Assembly (NCBI GenBank): GCA_002269645.1
Contig: NIVC01000903.1
Span: 79,178-143,177 of the forward strand
Source: Macrostomum lignano
Taxonomy: Eukaryota
Direction: 5' to 3'
Length of the DNA: 64,000 bases
Shown here: one piece after another, positions 21,591-63,938 of the stretch
Layout: every line of letters begins with the position of its first letter
Numbering within the stretch: the stretch's first letter is position 1
The notes under the pieces: generated by a model
Seen by the model: only the letters and a program-made list of their open reading frames with translations
What the model was told of the DNA's origin: nothing
Database searches by the model: none
Position numbers and translations under genes: made by a program

Positions 21591-21635
21591 CTAGGAGATC
21601 AAACCAAAAGTGAAGCGCTTGGTAAGAACGCAGTT

Positions 21636-24600
21636 ACTACGTAATGCGCAGATAAGTGTTGATTTTTAGGCATATTTGACGCAAAAAACGCAAATTATAC
21701 TACTATCTGAAAATGAAGTAAGTAGTATATGAAAACGATATCCTAAGCGTGATGTGGCAATATGTAGTCGTAATAATCCATGTGCTCATATTAATTCCAT
21801 GTACATTAATCCCTATCTATCTCAAATTGTACATTAATTCCATGTACATTAATCCATATCTCAAATTGTCTATCCCCAATTCTATATGTACACTCACATT
21901 AATCTACAGTGTCATCCCCAGCGCGCGCGCGCACCAAAATTACAACTCGAAACCCTACTATATGTACAGTGTACAATCTCATCTACTACTACCAAATGAG
22001 TCAACTAATTGTGTAGCCTACAACGTAAATGTATATTTCCAATGTACATTTCTCAGACATTTGAATAATACGGGTCGGAGTCTATATGTACATCGATAGC
22101 CTCTATACTCGTATCCGCTACATACCCCAAAAATTAGGTATGTACATTTTCACCCTCGGAGAATGTAGGTTTGAATATGCTGATAATTTATTCGAAATCA
22201 CTTATAAAATACACATACTTTCATATAGAGGCGGGCCTGTACAAACTCTCGCCAAGCGATGGGGTGGAGGTTGCGTCATCCAAGCCTCTCCCAAGTCTGC
22301 CCCCCCCCCAAATACAAGACTGTGTTGAAGCAGTGCTTTATATTTCTATTGACAGTGAGTATGATACAAGACGCTTCGTCGCGCTTTAATTACAGTAAAC
22401 CATCCCCTCGAAGCTCCTATACTGAATGCTGAATCACCCTTTAACTCGGACCATAGTCAAATTCAACCCTGTTCGAAAACAGCCACCCCTCCGATGTTCA
22501 CCAGACACAGCGCAGACCCCATAACAAATCGAGCTAAATTTTAACACTCGCCCCTGTTCTCTCTGTCCCCCCTTCTAAATGCCAAGGAATTTCGACCCTC
22601 TCTCCATTTTCAGTGTACAGACAGATCTTTCCACAGCACAGACCCTATATTAAACTTCAAAACCCCTCTCTTCTCCGATTACGTCATCCATGCCGCCCCA
22701 GTTAGCAAGAAACCAACTTTTAATGCACACATCAACCCCCGCGAGCAAATCCGAGTCCACCAACCTCTACCTGCATTGACAAACCCCAGCTGCATTTGTA
22801 AATGTACACAGCCTATGAATCAGTGTCTCCACCGCATGCAATTCTGATTTACTTGATTCTAAACTTTGTAAATTGTATAAGTCACCCTTGCGTTATACTA
22901 GAAGTAGTGAAGTCCACATATTTAAATACGTGAGGCTATTCAATTCTGCCTCTCCGCCTCCCCTACCTTCTCACTTCAAGCTTTCAGACTTGGTCTTTGA
23001 GACGGTCGGTTTAATCTGTTAGAAGCAGGAATGAATCATGCACTGACCTCTCCATACAAAGTAAAGTTGGAATTTCAGACAAGAAATTTGGTTATTTTAA
23101 AAGCTAAATGACTAGAAATGCACATTTTTTTCATTAAAATGCAGCTTTTTACAGTTTTTTTACGATTTTAACCTTAAAATGCAGACTTTGTTGATCAAAA
23201 TCAGTAGTTTCATCACTAGAAACCATACTTTCAGCAGCTCCTCGTAATTTGTCCAAATGTCGCTTTCAACTTGACCTTAGACTGCTTTTAAGCAGGAATG
23301 AACCCCCCACAAACATCCACAAGCCAGCCCAAAATCATCCAAAGACATGGCTATTGAAGCCTAAATTGCTAGAAATGCGCATTTTTTTCATAAGAAAATA
23401 CAAATTTTCACAGTTTTTATGCATTTTTACGTTAAAATGCAGACTTTATTGATCAAAATCAGTAGTTTCATCACTAGAAACCATACTTTCAGCAACTAAT
23501 TTGTCCAAATATCGCTTTCAATTTGACCTTAGACAGCTTTTAAGCAGGAATGAACCCCCCACAAACATCCACAAGCCACCCCAGAATCAACCAAAGACAT
23601 GGCTATTGAAGCTTAAATTGCTAGAAATGAGCATTTTTTCATAAAACACAAATTTTAACAGTTTTTACGCATTTTTTTCGTTAAAATGCAGACTTTATTG
23701 ATCAAAATCAGTAATTCATCACTAAAAACCACAATTTTAACACAAAATTATCACAAATGCTACTTCTGGAACTCTGAGACAGCTTTGAGCAGGAATTATA
23801 ATCGCACACGGATTACCCGAGCCAGTCCAATATTCCACTGAAGCCAGGGTTTTTTAAAGCTGAATTGTTAGAATTGCTCATTCTTTCGTTTAATAAATGA
23901 CAATTTTCACAGTTTTATTATTTTCTAACGTTAAAATGCGAAATGTATTGGTCAAACTTAGTAGTTTCATCCCAAAAGCCATAATTTCAACCGCTAATTT
24001 GTCCAAATGCTGATTTCAAAGTTGGCAAGAGACAGCTTTCGAGCAGGAATGAGTTACACACTGATCTCCATATGCACACCCCGGCCCAAGTTGGAATTCC
24101 ACCCAAGACATTTTCATTGAAAGCTAAATTACTAGAAATTGCACATTTTCGTTTTAAAAAGGTCAATTTTCACAGTTTTTACTCTTTTTAACGTTAAAAT
24201 GCTGACTTTATTGAACAAAATTAATCACTTCATCAGCAGAAACCATAATTTTTACAACTTAATGCTGTTTCATCATTCAAATGTATGTATTTGGTACGTG
24301 TAATACCCCTCATGAAGTCAGGGAAGGGATTATTCTTGAATATTGGGTTAAAACGTACAGTTTGCTATAAACCTAGCTATAATAATTTTAACATATACAG
24401 TCGGCGAAGCGGCCCGTTGATTTCGATTGACATTTAAACTGTCCCTCCCAGACCTCTCTCTCTCTCCTTCTGCACCCACCGAGAAAAGTGACTCATGCGG
24501 CAATCAGCTGGACAGGTTTTATTACTGAATTGGCAAAACAGCCAACACCCAATGGTCATATTAGACTCGTCTTCACAGCACAGACCCATGTAGAACAGAA

Positions 24601-27600
24601 CCACTCGTCCCTGTCTCTCTGACCTTACCATTTCTAACTGTCAAGGAATTCCGACCCTCCCTCTCCAATTTCAGTGTACAAACAGATATTTTCACAGCAC
24701 AGACTCATATATTGAGCCTCCTCCAACCAAAACCCTATCTTGATTACGTCATCCACCTCCCCCATAGAAGCAGTTAGCAAGAAACAAAATTTTTCGATGC
24801 ACATATGAACACTGTGGACCATGCAAAATCGCACATCTACGGGTCGATTTTGATTGACAATTTAATACCTTTTGTTGATGCTGCTGTGTACAGTAGTCTT
24901 ATTTCCGAAGCTCCTAGCAGTCATCTTTTAGATGTGGTGAATCAGTGTTGTTTTTGCCAACTTTACATCTTGATTCATCCTCCAAATTCTTCAACTCTGA
25001 CCATATTCAATAATTTAACCCATGCAAGTAGATTTGCCAATTCGCCAAATTAGCCAATACGAATGGGGCCAGAGGACCCACCCAAATCGAGCCCTTGTCT
25101 CTCTCAGGCCTCTCTCTCCTACACATACCCCAGAAAAGTGACTCATGAGGCAATCAGTTTAACAGGTTCAGTATACTGAATTGGCAAAACAGCAAACACC
25201 CAATGGTCAATGGACTCGTCTTCGCAGCACAGACCATTTTGAATAAAGCCAAAACACACATACACCCCTATTCTCTGACCAAACCTTTCCATTTCTAGTT
25301 GTCAACGAAATTCGACCGGCCTCTCTCTCAATCCCAAAGTACATTTTGACGAAGCAAGCAGATCTTTTCACAGCACGGACCCAGCCTCCCCCAACCAAAG
25401 CCCTATCTCTGATTACGTCATCTATACATCCCCATAGAAGCAGTTAGCAAGAAAAAAATTTCGATGCGCATATATGAACAATGCGAACCAAGCAAATCCG
25501 CGCGTCTACCAAAGCCAACCCTACCCTGCGTGCTGTAATTGCATTTGTCAATGTACACACCCTATGAATCAGTGTCTCCTTCTTTGGAACACACGAAGGC
25601 ATTAGTCAGAAAGTTTGGATGCAATTAAAAACTCTCTCGATGCTTTGCGTATAAACGAGTAATCGATTGAATCAATTGTACACTTGACACATTTAATTAC
25701 GTGCTGCCATGCAACGGAAAGACAGGATAATGGGGTGGGTGGTCACGCAGCCTCATTCTCTCTTTCCTACTGATTTTTCATTATCTATCAATCTCAGCTC
25801 TTTCCGGGGCAACTCGCGCATTTGTGCATACTTCCTCATCAGATTTACCACATGTTCATTTACATGTGATGTACATATGCAAGCGGCAGCCGATTTAAAC
25901 CTGAGAAATGGTTGAAGCACTCCCCCGACTATGACTAAATGCACGTACGTTCAGTCAAATACAGGAAAATTTGACACCCGTAGTATGAAGATGAAATCTT
26001 CACGAAAGCTTCACATGTTTATCTTTCTCTGGGGAAATGACGATAGTTTCTCAATAAAAATCTGTCATAGGCCCAATATAGCAGTTTAAATATTTTCACG
26101 AAAATGTCGCATTATTCAAAGAACTGATTTTTGCAAACTCTACTGTCAGTAGGAAGATGAGTTTTCATAGAGACATTTTGTAAAACATAGACTAAACTTT
26201 CAAATCATTCGTTTACACGACGCACAGTCACGGTCCGGCCACCCTCCGCCCGCGCCGCTGCCTCTCAATGAATGTAAAATAGGAGTGTTAGTTCATGTAT
26301 TAATGCTCCTTGACCTGCAAAAATTATACGGTTGCTAGGCAGTGTCGTAAAACAGAACATGCGTTTTTCTGTAAAGTAATAATAACCCCACCATTAATAT
26401 AGACAGTTGGTCGTGTAAACGAATGATTTGAAAGTTTAGTCTATGTTTTACAAAATGTCTCTATGAAAACTCATCTTCCTACTGACAGTAGAGTTTGCAA
26501 AAATCAGTTCTTTGAATAATGCGACATTTTCGTGAAAATATTTAAACTGCTATATTGGGCCTATGACAGATTTTTATTGAGAAACTATCGTCATTTCCCC
26601 AGAGAAAGATAAACATGTGAAGCTTTCGTGAAGATTTCATCTTCATACTACGGGTGTCAAATTTTCCTGTATTTGACTGAACGTACGTGCATTTAGTCAT
26701 AGTCGGGGGAGTGCTTCAACCATTTCTCAGGTTTAAATCGGCTGCCGCTTGCATATGTACATCACATGTAAATGAACATGTGGTAAATCTGATGAGGAAG
26801 TATGCACAAATGCGCGAGTTGCCCCGGAAAGAGCTGAGATTGATAGATAATGAAAAATCAGTAGGAAAGAGAGAATGAGGCTGCGTGACCACCCACCCCA
26901 TTATCCTGTCTTTCCGTTGCATGGCAGCACGTAATTAAATGTGTCAAGTGTACAATTGATTCAATCGATTACTCGTTTATACGCAAAGCATCGAGAGAGT
27001 TTTTAATTGCATCCAAACTTTCTGACTAATGCCTTCGTGTGTTCCAAAGAAGGAGACACTGATTCATAGGGTGTGTACATTGACAAATGCAATTACAGCA
27101 CGCAGGGTAGGGTTGGCTTTGGTAGACGCGCGGATTTGCTTGGTTCGCATTGTTCATATATGCGCATCGAAATTTTTTTCTTGCTAACTGCTTCTATGGG
27201 GATGTATAGATGACGTAATCAGAGATAGGGCTTTGGTTGGGGGAGGCTGGGTCCGTGCTGTGAAAAGATCTGCTTGCTTCGTCAAAATGTACTTTGGGAT
27301 TGAGAGAGAGGCCGGTCGAATTTCGTTGACAACTAGAAATGGAAAGGTTTGGTCAGAGAATAGGGGTGTATGTGTGTTTTGGCTTTATTCAAAATGGTCT
27401 GTGCTGCGAAGACGAGTCCATTGACCATTGGGTGTTTGCTGTTTTGCCAATTCAGTATACTGAACCTGTTAAACTGATTGCCTCATGAGTCACTTTTCTG
27501 GGGTATGTGTAGGAGAGAGAGGCCTGAGAGAGACAAGGGCTCGATTTGGGTGGGTCCTCTGGCCCCATTCGTATTGGCTAATTTGGCGAATTGGCAAATC

Positions 27601-30600
27601 TACTTGCATGGGTTAAATTATTGAATATGGTCAGAGTTGAAGAATTTGGAGGATGAATCAAGATGTAAAGTTGGCAAAAACAACACTGATTCACCACATC
27701 TAAAAGATGACTGCTAGGAGCTTCGGAAATAAGACTACTGTACACAGCAGCATCAACAAAAGGTATTAAATTGTCAATCAAAATCGACCCGTAGATGTGC
27801 GATTTTGCATGGTCCACAGTGTTCATATGTGCATCGAAAAATTTTGTTTCTTGCTAACTGCTTCTATGGGGGAGGTGGATGACGTAATCAAGATAGGGTT
27901 TTGGTTGGAGGAGGCTCAATATATGAGTCTGTGCTGTGAAAATATCTGTTTGTACACTGAAATTGGAGAGGGAGGGTCGGAATTCCTTGACAGTTAGAAA
28001 TGGTAAGGTCAGAGAGACAGGGACGAGTGGTTCTGTTCTACATGGGTCTGTGCTGTGAAGACGAGTCTAATATGACCATTGGGTGTTGGCTGTTTTGCCA
28101 ATTCAGTAATAAAACCTGTCCAGCTGATTGCCGCATGAGTCACTTTTCTCGGTGGGTGCAGAAGGAGAGAGAGAGAGGTCTGGGAGGGACAGTTTAAATG
28201 TCAATCGAAATCAACGGGCCGCTTCGCCGACTGTATATGTTAAAATTATTATAGCTAGGTTTATAGCAAACTGTACGTTTTAACCCAATATTCAAGAATA
28301 ATCCCTTCCCTGACTTCATGAGGGGTATTACACGTACCAAATACATACATTTGAATGATGAAACAGCATTAAGTTGTAAAAATTATGGTTTCTGCTGATG
28401 AAGTGATTAATTTTGTTCAATAAAGTCAGCATTTTAACGTTAAAAAGAGTAAAAACTGTGAAAATTGACCTTTTTAAAACGAAAATGTGCAATTTCTAGT
28501 AATTTAGCTTTCAATGAAAATGTCTTGGGTGGAATTCCAACTTGGGCCGGGGTGTGCATATGGAGATCAGTGTGTAACTCATTCCTGCTCGAAAGCTGTC
28601 TCTTGCCAACTTTGAAATCAGCATTTGGACAAATTAGCGGTTGAAATTATGGCTTTTGGGATGAAACTACTAAGTTTGACCAATACATTTCGCATTTTAA
28701 CGTTAGAAAATAATAAAACTGTGAAAATTGTCATTTATTAAACGAAAGAATGAGCAATTCTAACAATTCAGCTTTAAAAAACCCTGGCTTCAGTGGAATA
28801 TTGGACTGGCTCGGGTAATCCGTGTGCGATTATAATTCCTGCTCAAAGCTGTCTCAGAGTTCCAGAAGTAGCATTTGTGATAATTTTGTGTTAAAATTGT
28901 GGTTTTTAGTGATGAATTACTGATTTTGATCAATAAAGTCTGCATTTTAACGAAAAAAATGCGTAAAAACTGTTAAAATTTGTGTTTTATGAAAAAATGC
29001 TCATTTCTAGCAATTTAAGCTTCAATAGCCATGTCTTTGGTTGATTCTGGGGAGGCTTGTGGATGTTTGTGGGGGGTTCATTCCTGCTTAAAAGCTGTCT
29101 AAGGTCAAATTGAAAGCGATATTTGGACAAATTAGTTGCTGAAAGTATGGTTTCTAGTGATGAAACTACTGATTTTGATCAATAAAGTCTGCATTTTAAC
29201 GTAAAAATGCATAAAAACTGTGAAAATTTGTATTTTCTTATGAAAAAAATGCGCATTTCTAGCAATTTAGGCTTCAATAGCCATGTCTTTGGATGATTTT
29301 GGGCTGGCTTGTGGATGTTTGTGGGGGGTTCATTCCTGCTTAAAAGCAGTCTAAGGTCAAGTTGAAAGCGACATTTGGACAAATTACGAGGAGCTGCTGA
29401 AAGTATGGTTTCTAGTGATGAAACTACTGATTTTGATCAACAAAGTCTGCATTTTAAGGTTAAAATCGTAAAAAAACTGTAAAAAGCTGCATTTTAATGA
29501 AAAAAATGTGCATTTCTAGTCATTTAGCTTTTAAAATAACCAAATTTCTTGTCTGAAATTCCAACTTTACTTTGTATGGAGAGGTCAGTGCATGATTCAT
29601 TCCTGCTTCTAACAGATTAAACCGACCGTCTCAAAGACCAAGTCTGAAAGCTTGAAGTGAGAAGGTAGGGGAGGCGGAGAGGCAGAATTGAATAGCCTCA
29701 CGTATTTAAATATGTGGACTTCACTACTTCTAGTATAACGCAAGGGTGACTTATACAATTTACAAAGTTTAGAATCAAGTAAATCAGAATTGCATGCGGT
29801 GGAGACACTGATTCATAGGCTGTGTACATTTACAAATGCAGCTGGGGTTTGTCAATGCAGGTAGAGGTTGGTGGACTCGGATTTGCTCGCGGGGTTGATG
29901 TGTGCATTAAAAGTTGGTTTCTTGCTAACTGGGGCGGCATGGATGACGTAATCGGAGAAGAGAGGGGTTTTGAAGTTTAATATAGGGTCTGTGCTGTGGA
30001 AAGATCTGTCTGTACACTGAAAATGGAGAGAGGGTCGAAATTCCTTGGCATTTAGAAGGGGGGACAGAGAGAACAGGGGCGAGTGTTAAAATTTAGCTCG
30101 ATTTGTTATGGGGTCTGCGCTGTGTCTGGTGAACATCGGAGGGGTGGCTGTTTTCGAACAGGGTTGAATTTGACTATGGTCCGAGTTAAAGGGTGATTCA
30201 GCATTCAGTATAGGAGCTTCGAGGGGATGGTTTACTGTAATTAAAGCGCGACGAAGCGTCTTGTATCATACTCACTGTCAATAGAAATATAAAGCACTGC
30301 TTCAACACAGTCTTGTATTTGGGGGGGGGGGCAGACTTGGGAGAGGCTTGGATGACGCAACCTCCACCCCATCGCTTGGCGAGAGTTTGTACAGGCCCGC
30401 CTCTATATGAAAGTATGTGTATTTTATAAGTGATTTCGAATAAATTATCAGCATATTCAAACCTACATTCTCCGAGGGTGAAAATGTACATACCTAATTT
30501 TTGGGGTATGTAGCGGATACGAGTATAGAGGCTATCGATGTACATATAGACTCCGACCCGTATTATTCAAATGTCTGAGAAATGTACATTGGAAATATAC

Positions 30601-30995
30601 ATTTACGTTGTAGGCTACACAATTAGTTGACTCATTTGGTAGTAGTAGATGAGATTGTACACTGTACATATAGTAGGGTTTCGAGTTGTAATTTTGGTGC
30701 GCGCGCGCGCTGGGGATGACACTGTAGATTAATGTGAGTGTACATATAGAATTGGGGATAGACAATTTGAGATATGGATTAATGTACATGGAATTAATGT
30801 ACAATTTGAGATAGATAGGGATTAATGTACATGGAATTAATATGAGCACATGGATTATTACGACTACATATTGCCACATCACGCTTAGGATATCGTTTTC
30901 ATATACTACTTACTTCATTTTCAGATAGTAGTATAATTTGCGTTTTTTGCGTCAAATCTGCCTAAAAATCAACACTTATCTGCGCATTACGTAGT
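21636..30995. mobile_element. 9,360-bp fold-back (palindromic) non-autonomous element: 4,586-bp inverted arms, 188-bp spacer, 6-bp flanking duplication
   Basis: Left arm 21636-26221 is the reverse complement of 26410-30995; mirrored ORF pairs sum to 52631 (e.g. 21749/30882, 23249/29382, 25753/26878). Termini ACTACGTAATGCGC...GCGCATTACGTAGT. GCAGTT flanks both ends (21630-21635, 30996-31001). No ORF longer than ~116 aa. Confidence 0.85.
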
Positions 30996-32574
30996 GCAGT
31001 TGCATAAAGAATCTGCCAATTTAGTGTTGAGCTGAAACTAATTAACGAGGTCAGTGTCGGAGAGAAAGACAAAAACGAGAAATCAAAATCCCAAAAGACC
31101 AACTAGAGGTCACGGCTTCTGGATGCTAAGTTCCTGCCATGACTCCAACGCTGAGCACTGTGATCCCCAAGTGGGAAACTGCTTGAAATGGCTGTGCTAA
31201 AAATAGACACAGCACTGGATTTTGGCTCAAATTAAGTGTGTAAAACCGCGCAGTTCAGCTGGTCGTGGCGCAGTAATTGGAGACAAATGAAGGGATCGAG
31301 GTCCGCGGGGAGTCCGGGGGGGGGCAGCGATGCAGCTTACAAGCCATGCGCCCGAGCGAGCCTTTGATACTGAGGCAACTCTCTGGGGAATCTGATTGAA
31401 TTTAAGACAGCTGGCTGACTGCGGGCTGCATGGGGAAGCTGCATGCAAAGGGAGAAGAGCTGCAGAGCGCGTGAAGACTTGGGCATGTGAGCAGGGCGTT
31501 GATCCTAATCTTATATCTGCGTATTCTCACTGGGGGAGATGCTTGCAAATTTAAGGAGTAAACAAACACTTGACCGTTTGATAATTTATTCTATTTGGAT
31601 TAAGAATGCGCATCTCTGGGCCTTTGGATACTGAAATAACGATTGTTAAGCGTGTGCAAAGCTTGGTGCAATCAAGCTAAGCCATACTAGCTCTCTATCA
31701 TTGAGCGTGTGCAAAGCTTGGCGTGCAATCAGGCTTAGCCATTACTAGCTCCTCTATAACTGAGCGTGTGCAAAGCTGGAGTGCCATATGTTTAATGTGT
31801 GTCATCAGGTTTCATCCTGCCCAGCATCACTAGCCCCAGAAGAAACAGTCAACCAACTGAAGGTCAGCACTTAGCCAGCAGCTACCAGGTCGAATGAACA
31901 GCTGCTGAATTGGCAACATTCGGGCAGTGCATGGGGGGTCTATACGCCAGGCAAGAAGTGCCATTTTTGCTTCATTACCTTCTCTTGGGGGGGGGGGCAG
32001 CTTTCGCAGCCGAGCTTATCAGCACCAGCTGCAGTCGTTAAGGCCGCACTGCCGCAGCCCCCCTAGGGACGGCGCTCAGCAATACTTGTCCCAGTAAATC
32101 AGGATCCGGGGCCACGCCCCAATAATTCCATTTGCCGGGTTGGAGTTTTACAACCCTAGTAAATGCCATTTTTGTCGCTCCCACGCGTGTTATGCTTCAT
32201 TAATAGCTAAGCACATTTTTGCCCAATAACAGTGGTGAGGCCTGGACTGCGGGGACTGCAGGACTCTCCTATGTTGAGGCTTGCACAGGCTTTCGATTCT
32301 CTCGGACTCGGCGAGATTAATTATTGCCCTTTAGCCCTGTAATCATAAATCTGCTCTCGGGGGTCTGGAGTGCGAGAGGGAGATGGGAGAGCGGCCGGGT
32401 CTTTGGCGCTCAGTTCCTCAATTCCGGTAGGTGCCGCAAGCGATGCCAGCTGTGCACCCTAAAAGTGCAAAAAGGGAACAGAGCGCCCGACTTAGTGTCA
32501 GGTGTATCTATGAATATTTGGCTGCCAAAGAGTGCACATTCGGTTTCAGGGGTAGCCAAGTTGCGGTTGATAGG

Positions 32575-54302: not shown

Positions 54303-54375
54303 TCGCATCTGTGAAAGTTGATTAAGCACCACCCGCATCATTGCAGGAGGCGCGCCGTTCGTCCATCTCGCGGTG

Positions 54376-56781
54376 ATGTCGCAGCTGCCGCAGCTGGGCA
54401 GCACCCTGCCTGACGAGCTTCTGTTCGTCTCGACCACGGCGGCTGCAACCGCCGCCGCCAACGCCACCGAGCCGGAGTACTCCACCCCGGTGATGGGCCT
54501 GCTCGGCTTCCTGGCCTCGGTGGCCAGCTTCGTCACCGTGGTCGGTAACCTGCTGGTCATCACGGCGTTCTTCGTTGAACGCCAGCTGCGCAGCGCCACC
54601 AACTATTTCATCGCCTCGCTGGCCATCACTGACCTGCTGATCGGCATGTTCAGCATGAACCTGTACACCCTGTACCTCCTGCTGGGCAAGTGGCCTCTCG
54701 GCCGCTTCGTGTGCAACATGTGGCTGTCGTTGGACTACACGGCCTGCCTGACGTCGCAGTACACCGTGTTCTGCATCACTGTGGACAGATTCTGCTCGGT
54801 GAAGATTCCAGCGAAGTACAGGAAGTGGCGCACCGAACGCAAAGTGCAGCTGATGGTGGCGGCCACCTGGGTGCTGCCCGCTATGCTGTTCGTGCCGTCA
54901 ACTTTTGCCTGGCCCTACCTGTCAAGCAAGGTGCGCAGCGAGGATGCTTGCTACGCTGAGTTCTCTGAGGATCCCGTCTACAACACAGTGCTGACCATCT
55001 GCTACTTCTGGGTGACCCTGGTGGCTATGATCGCGCTGTACATCGGCATCTACCGGGTGGCGCTCAACCTGGCCAGGAAGTCCGAGGCCAAGCGGCAGAA
55101 GGTCAGCAACCTCATAACCATGGCCAACCAGACTGCCCGGGTGGGCATCGGGATCACCAACGCCCAGCGGAGTCCGTCACACGAAGCTGGCGGCGGCGGA
55201 GGTGGAGGCGGCGGCGGTGGTGGTGGAGGCGGACGAGGCAGCGGTAGCGCCGGCGGCGGCGAGGCCGGCAAGAGCCCGCAGAGGCCGCTGATCAAAGCCG
55301 CTGGTGGCGGAGGCGGAGGTGGTGACGTCACTGCCGGCAGGGGCGGAGCAGCAGCCGGCTCCTCCTCAAAAGCCGCCGCCGGCGGGTCGCACGACGCGCG
55401 AAAAGTGTCGAAGAAGGACAAGAAAAAGAGCGGCAACAACGCTGGCGGCGGCGGCGGCGGTGGCCGACGGGCGGTGCACAGCCAGAGCACCTCCTACCGG
55501 AGCGGACTGTCCTCGGACTACTGCTCCTCCCGAGCCGAGGACGATCGGTCGAGCTCGCCGGCGCTGCCCTCGGACTCGGACAACGGGCTGCACACGCCGG
55601 AGCCGACCTCCACCGGCGCCGGGCGAGCCACCACGACGGGGGCTTCGGTGGCGCCGGGCTCAGCCACGTCGAGACTGCCCGCCGCCAACAGCGCTGACAG
55701 CCGGCAGAACAATTCGAAACAGCCAATGACCGACCAGGCCTCGGACCCTGCGACCGCCCGGGAGGCACCTGGAGCGTCCGCGCCTCCCCCTCCTCCGTCG
55801 CCGCCTTCTTTGGCAATTGTGACCGTGGCCACGTCCGCTGTTGTCAGCCAGAAGCTGACCGCGTCCAACGACTCCGATTATCACACTGCCAGCGGACTCA
55901 GCTTTGAGAACGCCGCCCTGGACGCCAACGGGCATAGTGGCGCCGTCAGCCTAGCGGATACGCAGCAGCAGCAGCCGCAGCAGCAGCAGCAGCAGCAGCA
56001 GCAGCTGAAGACTCTGCAGTTCTCCTTGTGCGCTCCGTCGGACGAGTTTGAAGGCCTCCGTTATATCGACGAGGAGAGCATCCGGTCGAATCCATCCATC
56101 GACTCCATGCGGCTGCTCATCGAACTGCTGCCCAAGCACAGCCAGATCCTCGTCAATGACCGCTCGGCCAGGCCCGGCTCTCCGATTTGGAAGCGGCGGC
56201 CATCTTATGAGGACGAGCTGGCCGCCGCGGCCGAAGCGGCCGCCGTGCAGACCCGCGTTGACTTGAACTCCGGCGAACGGGACCGCGTGGTCACCTCAGT
56301 GGTGGAGCTGCCGCTGCCGCAGCCGGTGCGACGAACGGCGCAGCAGTCGACGCAGACAGTCGGCGACGACGAGATCGAAGTGATCCAGTGTGGCGCCGAG
56401 GAGCGGCGGAAGCAGCTGCACCTGCCGACGCTCGCCCAGTCGTTCCGGGACGCTACGAGGCGGCTGCGCAGTCGGGTGCGGACGAAACGGCAGGACCGGC
56501 AGAAGAAGAAGCAGTCGCGCACGGAGAATCGGGCCCGGAAGGCGCTGAAGACCATCACGCTGATCCTTGGCGCCTTCGTGGTCTGCTGGACGCCCTATCA
56601 CATCTTCATCCTGATCCGCAGCATCTGCCAGGCTCAGTGCCTCAATAAGCACCTGTTCAACCTGGGCTACTGGCTGTGCTACCTCAACAGCCCCATCAAT
56701 CCGTTCTGCTACGCGCTAGCCAATGCGCAGTTCAAGAAGGCCTTCCTGCGGATCATAAGGCTGGACCTGCGGAGACGATGA
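54376..56781 (+). CDS. Muscarinic acetylcholine receptor, B-type (GAR-1/GAR-2 / Drosophila mAChR-B-like); intronless class A GPCR, ~801 aa
   Basis: Seven TM segments: GNLLVI, TNYFIASLAITDLLIG, WLSLDY (Asp3.32), TSQYTVFCITVDRFCSV, CWTPYH, WLCYLNSPINPFCYALAN..FKKAF. The third intracellular loop is very long and low-complexity. ATG at 54376 follows GTG; TGA at 56779-56781. Confidence 0.93.
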   Translation: MSQLPQLGSTLPDELLFVSTTAAATAAANATEPEYSTPVMGLLGFLASVASFVTVVGNLLVITAFFVERQLRSATNYFIASLAITDLLIGMFSMNLYTLYLLLGKWPLGRFVCNMWLSLDYTACLTSQYTVFCITVDRFCSVKIPAKYRKWRTERKVQLMVAATWVLPAMLFVPSTFAWPYLSSKVRSEDACYAEFSEDPVYNTVLTICYFWVTLVAMIALYIGIYRVALNLARKSEAKRQKVSNLITMANQTARVGIGITNAQRSPSHEAGGGGGGGGGGGGGGGRGSGSAGGGEAGKSPQRPLIKAAGGGGGGGDVTAGRGGAAAGSSSKAAAGGSHDARKVSKKDKKKSGNNAGGGGGGGRRAVHSQSTSYRSGLSSDYCSSRAEDDRSSSPALPSDSDNGLHTPEPTSTGAGRATTTGASVAPGSATSRLPAANSADSRQNNSKQPMTDQASDPATAREAPGASAPPPPPSPPSLAIVTVATSAVVSQKLTASNDSDYHTASGLSFENAALDANGHSGAVSLADTQQQQPQQQQQQQQQLKTLQFSLCAPSDEFEGLRYIDEESIRSNPSIDSMRLLIELLPKHSQILVNDRSARPGSPIWKRRPSYEDELAAAAEAAAVQTRVDLNSGERDRVVTSVVELPLPQPVRRTAQQSTQTVGDDEIEVIQCGAEERRKQLHLPTLAQSFRDATRRLRSRVRTKRQDRQKKKQSRTENRARKALKTITLILGAFVVCWTPYHIFILIRSICQAQCLNKHLFNLGYWLCYLNSPINPFCYALANAQFKKAFLRIIRLDLRRR

Positions 56782-62662: not shown

Positions 62663-63938
62663 TTAGTTCTTAGAAGCGGGCGATCGCTCTCGCTTGACAG
62701 TCTCTGTCGGCGGCAGCCAGGGCTCGGCAACGACAAAGCTCGGCGGCGGGTTGCTGTTCTTGTCGTAGTAGCTCATGAGCCGGCCGTCCGTGTACCCGTA
62801 GCTGTAGGGCGCGTGCGGCCGCACATTTTTGTGCGCCTCCACCCACTTGGCGAATGCCGCCTCCGACTTCCGCTTCACCTCCAGCTTGTGCGCCTCCGCC
62901 GCCTCCGCCTCCTGCTTGGCCTTCTGCAGCTCGGCTCGGCGCTTCTCTTCGTAGGCGCTGCGCCACTTGGCGAACTCCACCTTGGCCTTGGCCTTGATCG
63001 CCTCCTTCTCCTTCTCCTTCTCTTCGCCTTCGCCTCCTCTTCCGCCTTTTTCCGCTGTTCCTCCTCGTGCTGCTGCTGGCTGCTGCCGCTTCTTGGCCAG
63101 CCAGCGCTTGATGGCCGCATCAACGGCGGCCTTCTTGGACGCCTTCTCCGCCTTGGCCTTCTCCTGCTGCTCTGCCTCTCGACGGCGCTGCTCTCGAAGC
63201 CGGCGCTCCTTTGCCAGGAACCAGGCCTCCCAGGTGCGTTCGCGAGTGCCGCCTGCATTGACGGAAGCCGCAGCCGAGGCGGAGGCGGCGGCTGAGACAG
63301 TCGATGACGCAGCCGCGCCCGAGGCGGAGCTGCGCCGATCCTCGAGTCCGCCGTCGAAGCCGACGCGACTCGACGCCGCTGTCGAGGCGGCTGCTTTCGC
63401 GACGAGGCCGCCGATGCCGCCGATGCCGTCGTAGTGACGGACCGGTTGGAGGCTGGAGGCGACAAGTTCCGGCGCGCCACCTTCCGTCTGGTGGAGGCGG
63501 TGGCGATTTCGTCAGTGCTTCCCCCGTTGAGCCGCTGCGCCACCTCCTGCGGCGCGGACAGCCTCGTCGGGCAGCGCCGGCTTCAGCCCGCGGCCGTCCG
63601 GACATCCTTGCCATCGCCGTCGCCGCTGCCGGTCTGTCGCTTCGCCGTCACTTGCCGCAGCAGCAGCCGCCACGCCGCCGGTTCTTCGGAGTCTGTAGAC
63701 AACTCGTCCTCATCGAAGCTGTCGTGATACAGAATGGAGGTCAGCGACTCCGTAGATGTCCGGCTGCCTTCGCGGCGGGCGTCCCGCCCGCGGCCGCCTC
63801 CTCCTCCGCAGCGCCAGCGTCCAGCTGAGCCATGAGGTCCTCCAGGGTGGCGCTGGGCCGAGGATGTCGCCCCAGCCGAAGGTGTACGCGTCCGGGTAGA
63901 AAGGTGCCAGTGATGGGCTTGGGCCGGGTGGTGGCCAT
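62663..63938 (-). CDS. CCDC34: CCDC34-like coiled-coil protein, interrupted by multiple apparent frameshifts (error-ridden CDS or pseudogene)
   Basis: C-terminal SYGYTDGRLMSYYDKNSNPPPSFVVAEPW matches my recollection of CCDC34 SYGYANGKLTGFYSGNSYPEPAFYNPIPW. TWEAWFLAKE matches TPWEVWFIGKE, and SLTSILYHDSFDEDE resembles LSPLGHQSFPFDED. These pieces lie in different frames. Candidate ATG at 63938, TAA at 62665-62663. Confidence 0.8.

Follow-up and report, generated by a model that had tools for sequence, protein, structure and literature searches.

A 64,000-nt stretch of the Macrostomum lignano genome (contig NIVC01000903.1; here called the window) contains a gene-less fold-back palindrome. In our reading it arose from one end of a polymerase-bearing element, A1, is likely copied by the A1 polymerase and likely inserted by the integrase of a second element, B1, with A1 and B1 together constituting a bipartite Polinton. 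We give this reading a probability of roughly three in four. The palindrome shares its tips and a 6-bp target-site duplication (TSD) with both A1 and B1, and it is therefore likely a freeloader on a split Polinton; membership of the window element in such a two-segment system is the most likely assignment.

The palindromic element in the window

The element spans positions 21636-30995 (9360 bp) and its halves are inverted copies of each other (Table 1). The arm identity of ~99.9% given by an earlier, sequence-only reading of this DNA was borne out: arm against arm, the alignment is 99.913% identical over 4587 columns, with two substitutions and two one-base gaps, and 172-188 nt of non-palindromic centre lie between the arms. 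Two copies of the terminal 23-mer, inverted relative to each other, lie in the window, where shuffles lead one to expect none. The ORF scan gave no frame of ≥ 180 aa in the palindrome, searches including tblastn with nine B1 proteins gave no similarity to Polinton proteins, and Rfam gave no match. A terminal hairpin was not supported when the first 140 nt of the end were folded and compared with shuffles (z = −0.69). An apparent enrichment of AP-1-like motifs was dropped, the count being exceeded by one of 200 shuffles.

Table 1 Features of the palindromic element, in window coordinates
Feature	Position	Strand	Remarks
Left TSD copy GCAGTT, 6 bp	21630..21635	+	Junction GCAGTT-ACTACG at 21630-21641
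Left terminal 31-bp block: ACT-AC reiteration, two variable modules, TTTT	21636..21666	+	
Left palindrome arm	21636..26221	+	No ORF ≥ 180 aa
Internal inverted copy of terminal motif, ACTACATA	21761..21768	-	Conserved in TIRs of family-1 A elements and palindromes
GATTACGTCATC block, first of three per arm	22677..22688	+	Others at 24742 and 25411
252-bp tandem repeat	23104..23731	+	Diverged extension to ~24251
Non-palindromic centre	26222..26409	.	In sisters, e.g. C657, present on both sides of a ~48-nt loop
Right palindrome arm, inverted copy of left arm at 99.9%	26410..30995	-	
Right terminal 31-bp block	30965..30995	-	Ends GTAGT
Right TSD copy GCAGTT, 6 bp	30996..31001	+	Junction CGTAGT-GCAGTT at 30990-31001

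Over positions 1-2628 the arm is ≥ 85% identical to the non-coding end of A1 copies with pPolB, and beyond position 2628 the arm consists of diverged duplicates and of sequence not found in A1 copies. The left terminal block is common to A1 and B1, with two mismatches to the B1 copies on contigs C10 and C251, and is a putative origin and integrase site. The GATTACGTCATC blocks, which we take to be ATF/CRE-like, are mirrored in the right arm at 27209, 27878 and 29942; their core is present also in A1 and in the inner TIR of B1. The copy number of the 252-bp repeat varies between family members. Since sister copies carry the centre on both sides of the loop, the window copy has lost ~190 bp at one side of the fold-back apex. 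The surroundings of the palindrome are rich in tandem repeats, and the window holds host genes of CCDC142-like (259-2916), rhodopsin-family GPCR (54322-56778) and CCDC34-like (62666-63511) type.

The polymerase segment A

A1 encodes a pPolB polymerase (PF03175, E = 8.6e-27) and neither an integrase nor a capsid protein. Coding members with the palindrome TIR measure 9.5-9.9 kb without insertions, as measured on six copies. UniRef polymerases 92-97% identical carry the label Macrostomum lignano. Catalytic motifs are present within the pPolB exons, together with a motif that we take to be a VSR-type nuclease insert, and the enzyme probably acts by protein priming at the ends. A VSR-type insert in pPolB is of the kind described in the available part of PMC10748475. 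Five GT-AG introns interrupt the gene, at positions common to A1 and a sister family, A2. Three of the five cut into polymerase motifs A, B and C or border on them (L065 1446-5261; L068, L072, L076). Four splice joints with intron-type ends were found in sequencing runs whose RNA status is guessed, no run being recorded as RNA, and three of the four occurred in two studies. The joint of the fifth intron is absent from the joints listed for these runs, and control run X11 contains none of the four.

The A2 elements end in ACTACTA, measure 9.0-10.1 kb and encode a pPolB that is 63-71% identical to that of A1. Among the matches listed, the genome holds at least 19 full-length pPolB matches of A1 and at least 38 of A2. 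An intact intronless VSR-type pPolB was not found in the genome; the sole contiguous match, on C234, has stops. A PC4-like gene is missing from five A1 copies.

Several A1 copies carry a non-LTR retrotransposon (endonuclease, RT, RNase H) in a glutamine-codon tract of a small ORF (L005 4587-7325, L049 3210-7883, L145, L154). It is in frame in two of them and the 5' extents differ; repeated targeting and a single insertion both stand as readings. Cargo present in single copies comprises a P-element transposase, a CIDE-N protein, a mariner, a PC4-like gene and a dUTPase (L039, L037/L038, L041, L061/L062, L155).

The integrase and capsid segment B

B1 is a separate element of ~10.2 kb (9.6-10.9 kb in the seven of eight copies with both ends in view) that encodes an rve integrase, minor and major capsid proteins, a protease, an ATPase and PZ/PW-like genes, and no polymerase. 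Its copies start with the terminal 31 bp of the window element and diverge thereafter. The major capsid protein (MCP) is double-jelly-roll by predicted fold (best E = 8.5e-16), the minor capsid protein was recognised by tblastn to metagenome relatives, and the protease matches that of complete Polinton family A (E = 4e-7), which in turn matches Peptidase_C5. This virion module (MCP, minor capsid protein, ATPase, protease) is confined to B1; neither A nor the window element has it. A2 has an integrase and capsid partner of its own, B2, at C4 and C2210. With a B2 capsid query, the best 99 of 451 candidates contained at least 15 full-length matches at 99-100% (B2) and at least 17 at 87-88% (B1). 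B2 also contains a Fic-domain gene.

A PDB sequence search by MCP profile gave no matches, and scans of viral contigs gave no MCP relatives. A metagenome scan returned 20 MCP loci at 26-41% identity; in two of the ten examined a pPolB accompanies the MCP on its contig (VSR-type in L210, HNH-type in L202), and TIRs were seen in none of the ten, so that a split element is shown within this genome only. In the MCP tree (support 90/93, midpoint root) B adjoins HNH-type Polintons and not the one VSR-type row, and A and B may thus come from different parents.

Partition of genes and shared termini

By tblastn with five pPolBs and PC4, both genes are absent from nine of nine B elements, and the nine B1 proteins have no match in 12 of 13 A elements, the thirteenth giving one scrap at E = 0.001; a complete Polinton used as control gave integrase, MCP, ATPase and PW matches. 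Among scored matches (the best 111 of 161 pPolB and the best 99 of 451 MCP candidates), pPolB and a B-type MCP occur on the same contig only three times, 45-465 kb apart. A rare complete ACTAC element could have escaped searches limited in this way. Both A and B include young copies whose frames are open and whose TIRs are nearly identical, and the palindrome is about as common as each coding half.

Positions 6-27 of ACTAC elements form two hypervariable modules that combine freely. Of 48 elements, 11 have unequal 31-mers at their two ends, and the difference reaches 11 bases in the B1 copy on C1070. These two features suggest end swapping between ACTAC molecules. The ends of B1 are identical to A1 or palindrome variants in 11 of 14 cases for module 1 and 10 of 14 for module 2, and to family-2 variants in none; the nearest distance is 0-3 mismatches to A1 and palindromes versus 10-16 to family 2. 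The variants thus form two closed pools, one of A1, B1 and palindromes and one of A2 and B2. Variants pooled within pairs, with none across, fit cognate recognition. A ~177-bp piece of the inner B1 TIR is matched at 85-95% in six of 12 A1 loci tested and not in the window element. Past position 31 the B1 TIR resembles A2 and not A1, so the pairing of A and B may be looser than two fixed pairs.

Complete Polintons and the origin of the split

Complete Polintons are abundant in this genome, with 569 integrase candidates for family A. The complete families with resolved ends (A, C and F; B and E left out) end in AGTAG, and family A has an AGT-AG terminal reiteration parallel to ACT-AC. Insertion of ACTAC elements into complete Polintons, or the reverse, is frequent (C1412, C1944, C271, C106), and C1485 also shows nesting. 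Derivatives of family C of ~8 kb with AGTAG ends (C754, ~359.8-368.2 kb; C10, ~1494.1-1501.9 kb) keep PC4, integrase and capsid genes, and no long pPolB frame is listed for them. These short integrase-bearing elements were considered as partners and rejected on account of their AGTAG ends.

A1, B1 and the palindrome could all descend by deletion, as ordinary non-autonomous elements, from a complete Polinton with ACTAC ends that has died out, is missing from the assembly or went unscored. The family-C derivatives are examples of such deletion in the same genome, and our searches scored the best candidates of longer lists. However, A1 and B1 have 31 bp and the sporadic ~177-bp piece in common rather than whole TIRs, and A2 and B2 repeat the same partition at 63-71% identity to family 1 in pPolB and 82-88% in integrase, MCP and ATPase. 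The five introns are older than the separation of A1 and A2, while intact vertebrate Mavericks are described as intronless in the available part of PMC8097293, and young open-frame copies with near-identical TIRs exist in both halves. We therefore consider this origin unlikely; among the alternatives it fares best.

About as unlikely is that A and B are independent satellites of complete AG-ended Polintons, A borrowing an integrase and B a polymerase, with tips made alike by recombination. The abundance of complete Polintons, the mutual nesting at four loci and the hint of separate parents in the MCP tree would fit, but the resolved complete families end in AGTAG and not ACTAC, and terminal variants are common to A1 and B1 and to A2 and B2, with none across. 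A role of A1 as a satellite of AG-ended complete Polintons became less likely with the finding of B1.

The palindrome as a lineage

The apex region of the palindrome matches 36 contigs at 85-100%, mostly 97-100% (best 40 of 54 candidates scored). Eight of 20 copies measure 9.07-9.89 kb, eleven 5.2-7.9 kb, and one, with cargo genes, 14.4 kb. Two pairs of loci have identical flanks and different lengths (C982, 9071 bp, vs C1379, 7035 bp; C4430, 5961 bp, vs C2786, 4390 bp), so that length varies at one and the same insertion site and a short copy can be a secondary product. On C362 (496180-525281) three palindrome units follow one another, every junction bearing one and the same 6-mer, as either tandem amplification or an assembly effect. 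An A1 copy is nested within one palindrome copy.

Long palindromes assemble poorly, and the unequal lengths at identical flanks could mean that faulty assembly or amplification turned an A1 end into a palindrome. We judge this very improbable, since one apex sequence occurs on 36 contigs with differing flanks and TSDs, the arms differ at four positions, and the inner arm has sequence missing from A1 copies.

Termini and target-site duplications

Both junctions of the window element are exactly as the sequence-only reading gave them. That reading had weighed a Polinton-type end (ACTAC...GTAGT, 6-bp TSD) against a CMC/Chapaev-type end (CACTAC, 4-bp TSD) and had proposed to tabulate the base before ACTAC and to inspect the ORFs of longer copies. 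A 300-bp end query of the genome gave 224 candidates, the best 40 of which were scored, and the conserved TIR motif occurs 113 times. Our end table covered both ends of 50 elements, copies with one end only being left out; two repeated the insertion site of another, and 48 distinct insertions were kept. An exact 6-bp TSD flanks 46 of these (30/31 family-1 A and palindrome copies, 6/7 B1 and 10/10 family-2 copies), comprising 45 different 6-mers, the exceptions being C1580 with inverted flanks and C416 without a TSD. All 96 ends carry the ACT-AC reiteration, and the base before it is random (C 27, G 26, A 22, T 21; p = 0.78), with CACTAC at both ends in 6 of the 48, about the level of random flanks. 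The target sites show a mild preference for a pyrimidine at position 3 (68 of 92 strand-symmetrised sites from 46 insertions), and A is the most frequent base at position 2.

The first of the two end types was thus upheld. The coding relatives with ACTAC ends carry pPolB or an rve integrase, which also supports a Polinton-type integrase and probable protein-primed slide-back initiation. The CAGT duplication is literally present at the window locus, as a by-product: shifting the boundary one base outward on each side keeps the inner four bases duplicated. CMC/Chapaev elements have CAC...GTG termini, a 2-4-bp TSD and a family DDE transposase. A CMC/Chapaev-type or foldback transposon that moves by cut and paste, with CACTAC termini and a TSD of 4 bp, can be read from the CAGT duplication and the right end GTAGTG at this single locus, but the random preceding base and the 46 6-bp TSDs refute it. 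The genes of the coding relatives speak against it as well: no CMC transposase was found in the ORFs scanned of family members, and the sole DDE transposases are nested cargo in one copy each (P-element in C2132, mariner in C1091).

Proposed mechanism

The roles that we assign to A, B and the palindrome are drawn from Polinton and adenovirus biology and are accordingly conditional. An A1 copy would be transcribed and spliced to yield a terminal-protein/pPolB product, which would use the ACT-AC reiteration as its priming site on all molecules with ACTAC ends and jump back by three bases, a type of priming discussed or proposed for Mavericks in the available part of PMC8097293. B1 would provide the integrase and possibly particles of ~10-kb capacity. 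Co-replicating A1, B1 and palindrome molecules would exchange terminal modules. The palindrome would have a single origin by template switching at the apex and would spread, with an origin at each end, as a passenger resembling a defective-interfering genome. Complementation between A1 and B1, and the formation of particles, are what we infer from this division of genes. The near-equal lengths of A, B and the palindrome suggest a packaging limit of ~10 kb; a strict argument from size is weakened by the 11 of 20 palindrome copies of only 5.2-7.9 kb. More tentatively, at somewhat below even odds, we speculate that the system is a multipartite animal dsDNA virus with two ~10-kb Polinton segments in separate particles, one with the spliced polymerase and one with integrase and capsid, that it has diversified into two sister species, each with a pool of recombining termini, and that it is parasitised by a capsid-sized heritable defective-interfering palindrome.

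Relation to known systems

Polintons are defined by a polymerase and an integrase carried together, according to the available part of PMC5499653. Here the two are not on one element, pPolB being found only in A and the rve integrase only in B. The window element acts like a non-autonomous Polinton derivative and falls outside this single-molecule definition of the family. As far as the accessible parts of PMC8097293, PMC10748475 and PMC8502044 describe them, animal Polintons or Mavericks, including those with VSR-type pPolB, are alike in the 6-bp TSD, the long TIRs and the terminal reiteration, as well as in pPolB, rve integrase, double-jelly-roll major capsid, minor capsid, protease and ATPase; the total of A and B, ~19.7 kb, falls within their published range of 13-25 kb. 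In contrast to them, the genes stand here on two TIR-bounded elements, pPolB has five GT-AG introns where Polinton genes are intronless, and either coding half is roughly matched in abundance by a palindrome without genes. The ends also differ, being ACT-AC here and (AGT)2 or (AG)3, with 5'-AG commonest, in the Polintons covered by the accessible text. That the ends are non-canonical for Polintons was correctly anticipated in so far as they begin with ACTAC and not AG, but the AC start is not new and has one fish precedent. Mavericks of the eel Monopterus albus have 5'-(AC)3A ends with a 6-bp TSD (PMC8097293, available part); these are a dinucleotide repeat, in contrast to the trinucleotide ACT here, and belong to 14 defective copies for which that part reports no split.

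Bidnaviruses, too, consist of two segments whose termini match, and their pPolB derives from Polintons (PMC4061559, PMC8502044, in the parts available); here the match extends over the terminal 31 bp and is a resemblance only. They are described there as ssDNA viruses with a parvovirus-type capsid and an SF3 helicase, polymerase and capsid lying on one segment. Bidnaviral ssDNA segments are packaged separately. The elements of M. lignano, in contrast, have a double-jelly-roll capsid and an integrase, with polymerase and capsid on different segments.

Snap-back or copy-back defective-interfering genomes are gene-less fold-back molecules that keep the replication end twice. The palindrome has this form, being gene-less, with the replication end at both tips, and propagated as a lineage; unlike them it is also integrated in the germline with a TSD. 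The yeast killer plasmids pGKL1 and pGKL2 are cytoplasmic and without particles, each has its own polymerase, and to our knowledge they have no integrase. They resemble the present system as two-component, protein-primed linear DNA, of about 9 and 13 kb (PMC13348850, available part). We found neither a bipartite Polinton nor a paper on Macrostomum Polintons in the literature searched; supplements, Repbase and subscription journals lay outside its scope and may catalogue these families.

Conclusion

Our result accounts for a group of giant non-coding palindromes in the genome of M. lignano. A stable split, repeated in two sister pairs, would mean that a virus-like dsDNA element which integrates has a segmented genome, and would be a living parallel to the step proposed for the origin of bidnaviruses. 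The two pools of terminal variants are a natural map of the end sequence that is read by polymerase and integrase. Since this laboratory flatworm has young copies, and public runs contain spliced polymerase joints, particle formation and movement of Polintons become directly testable in Macrostomum lignano.
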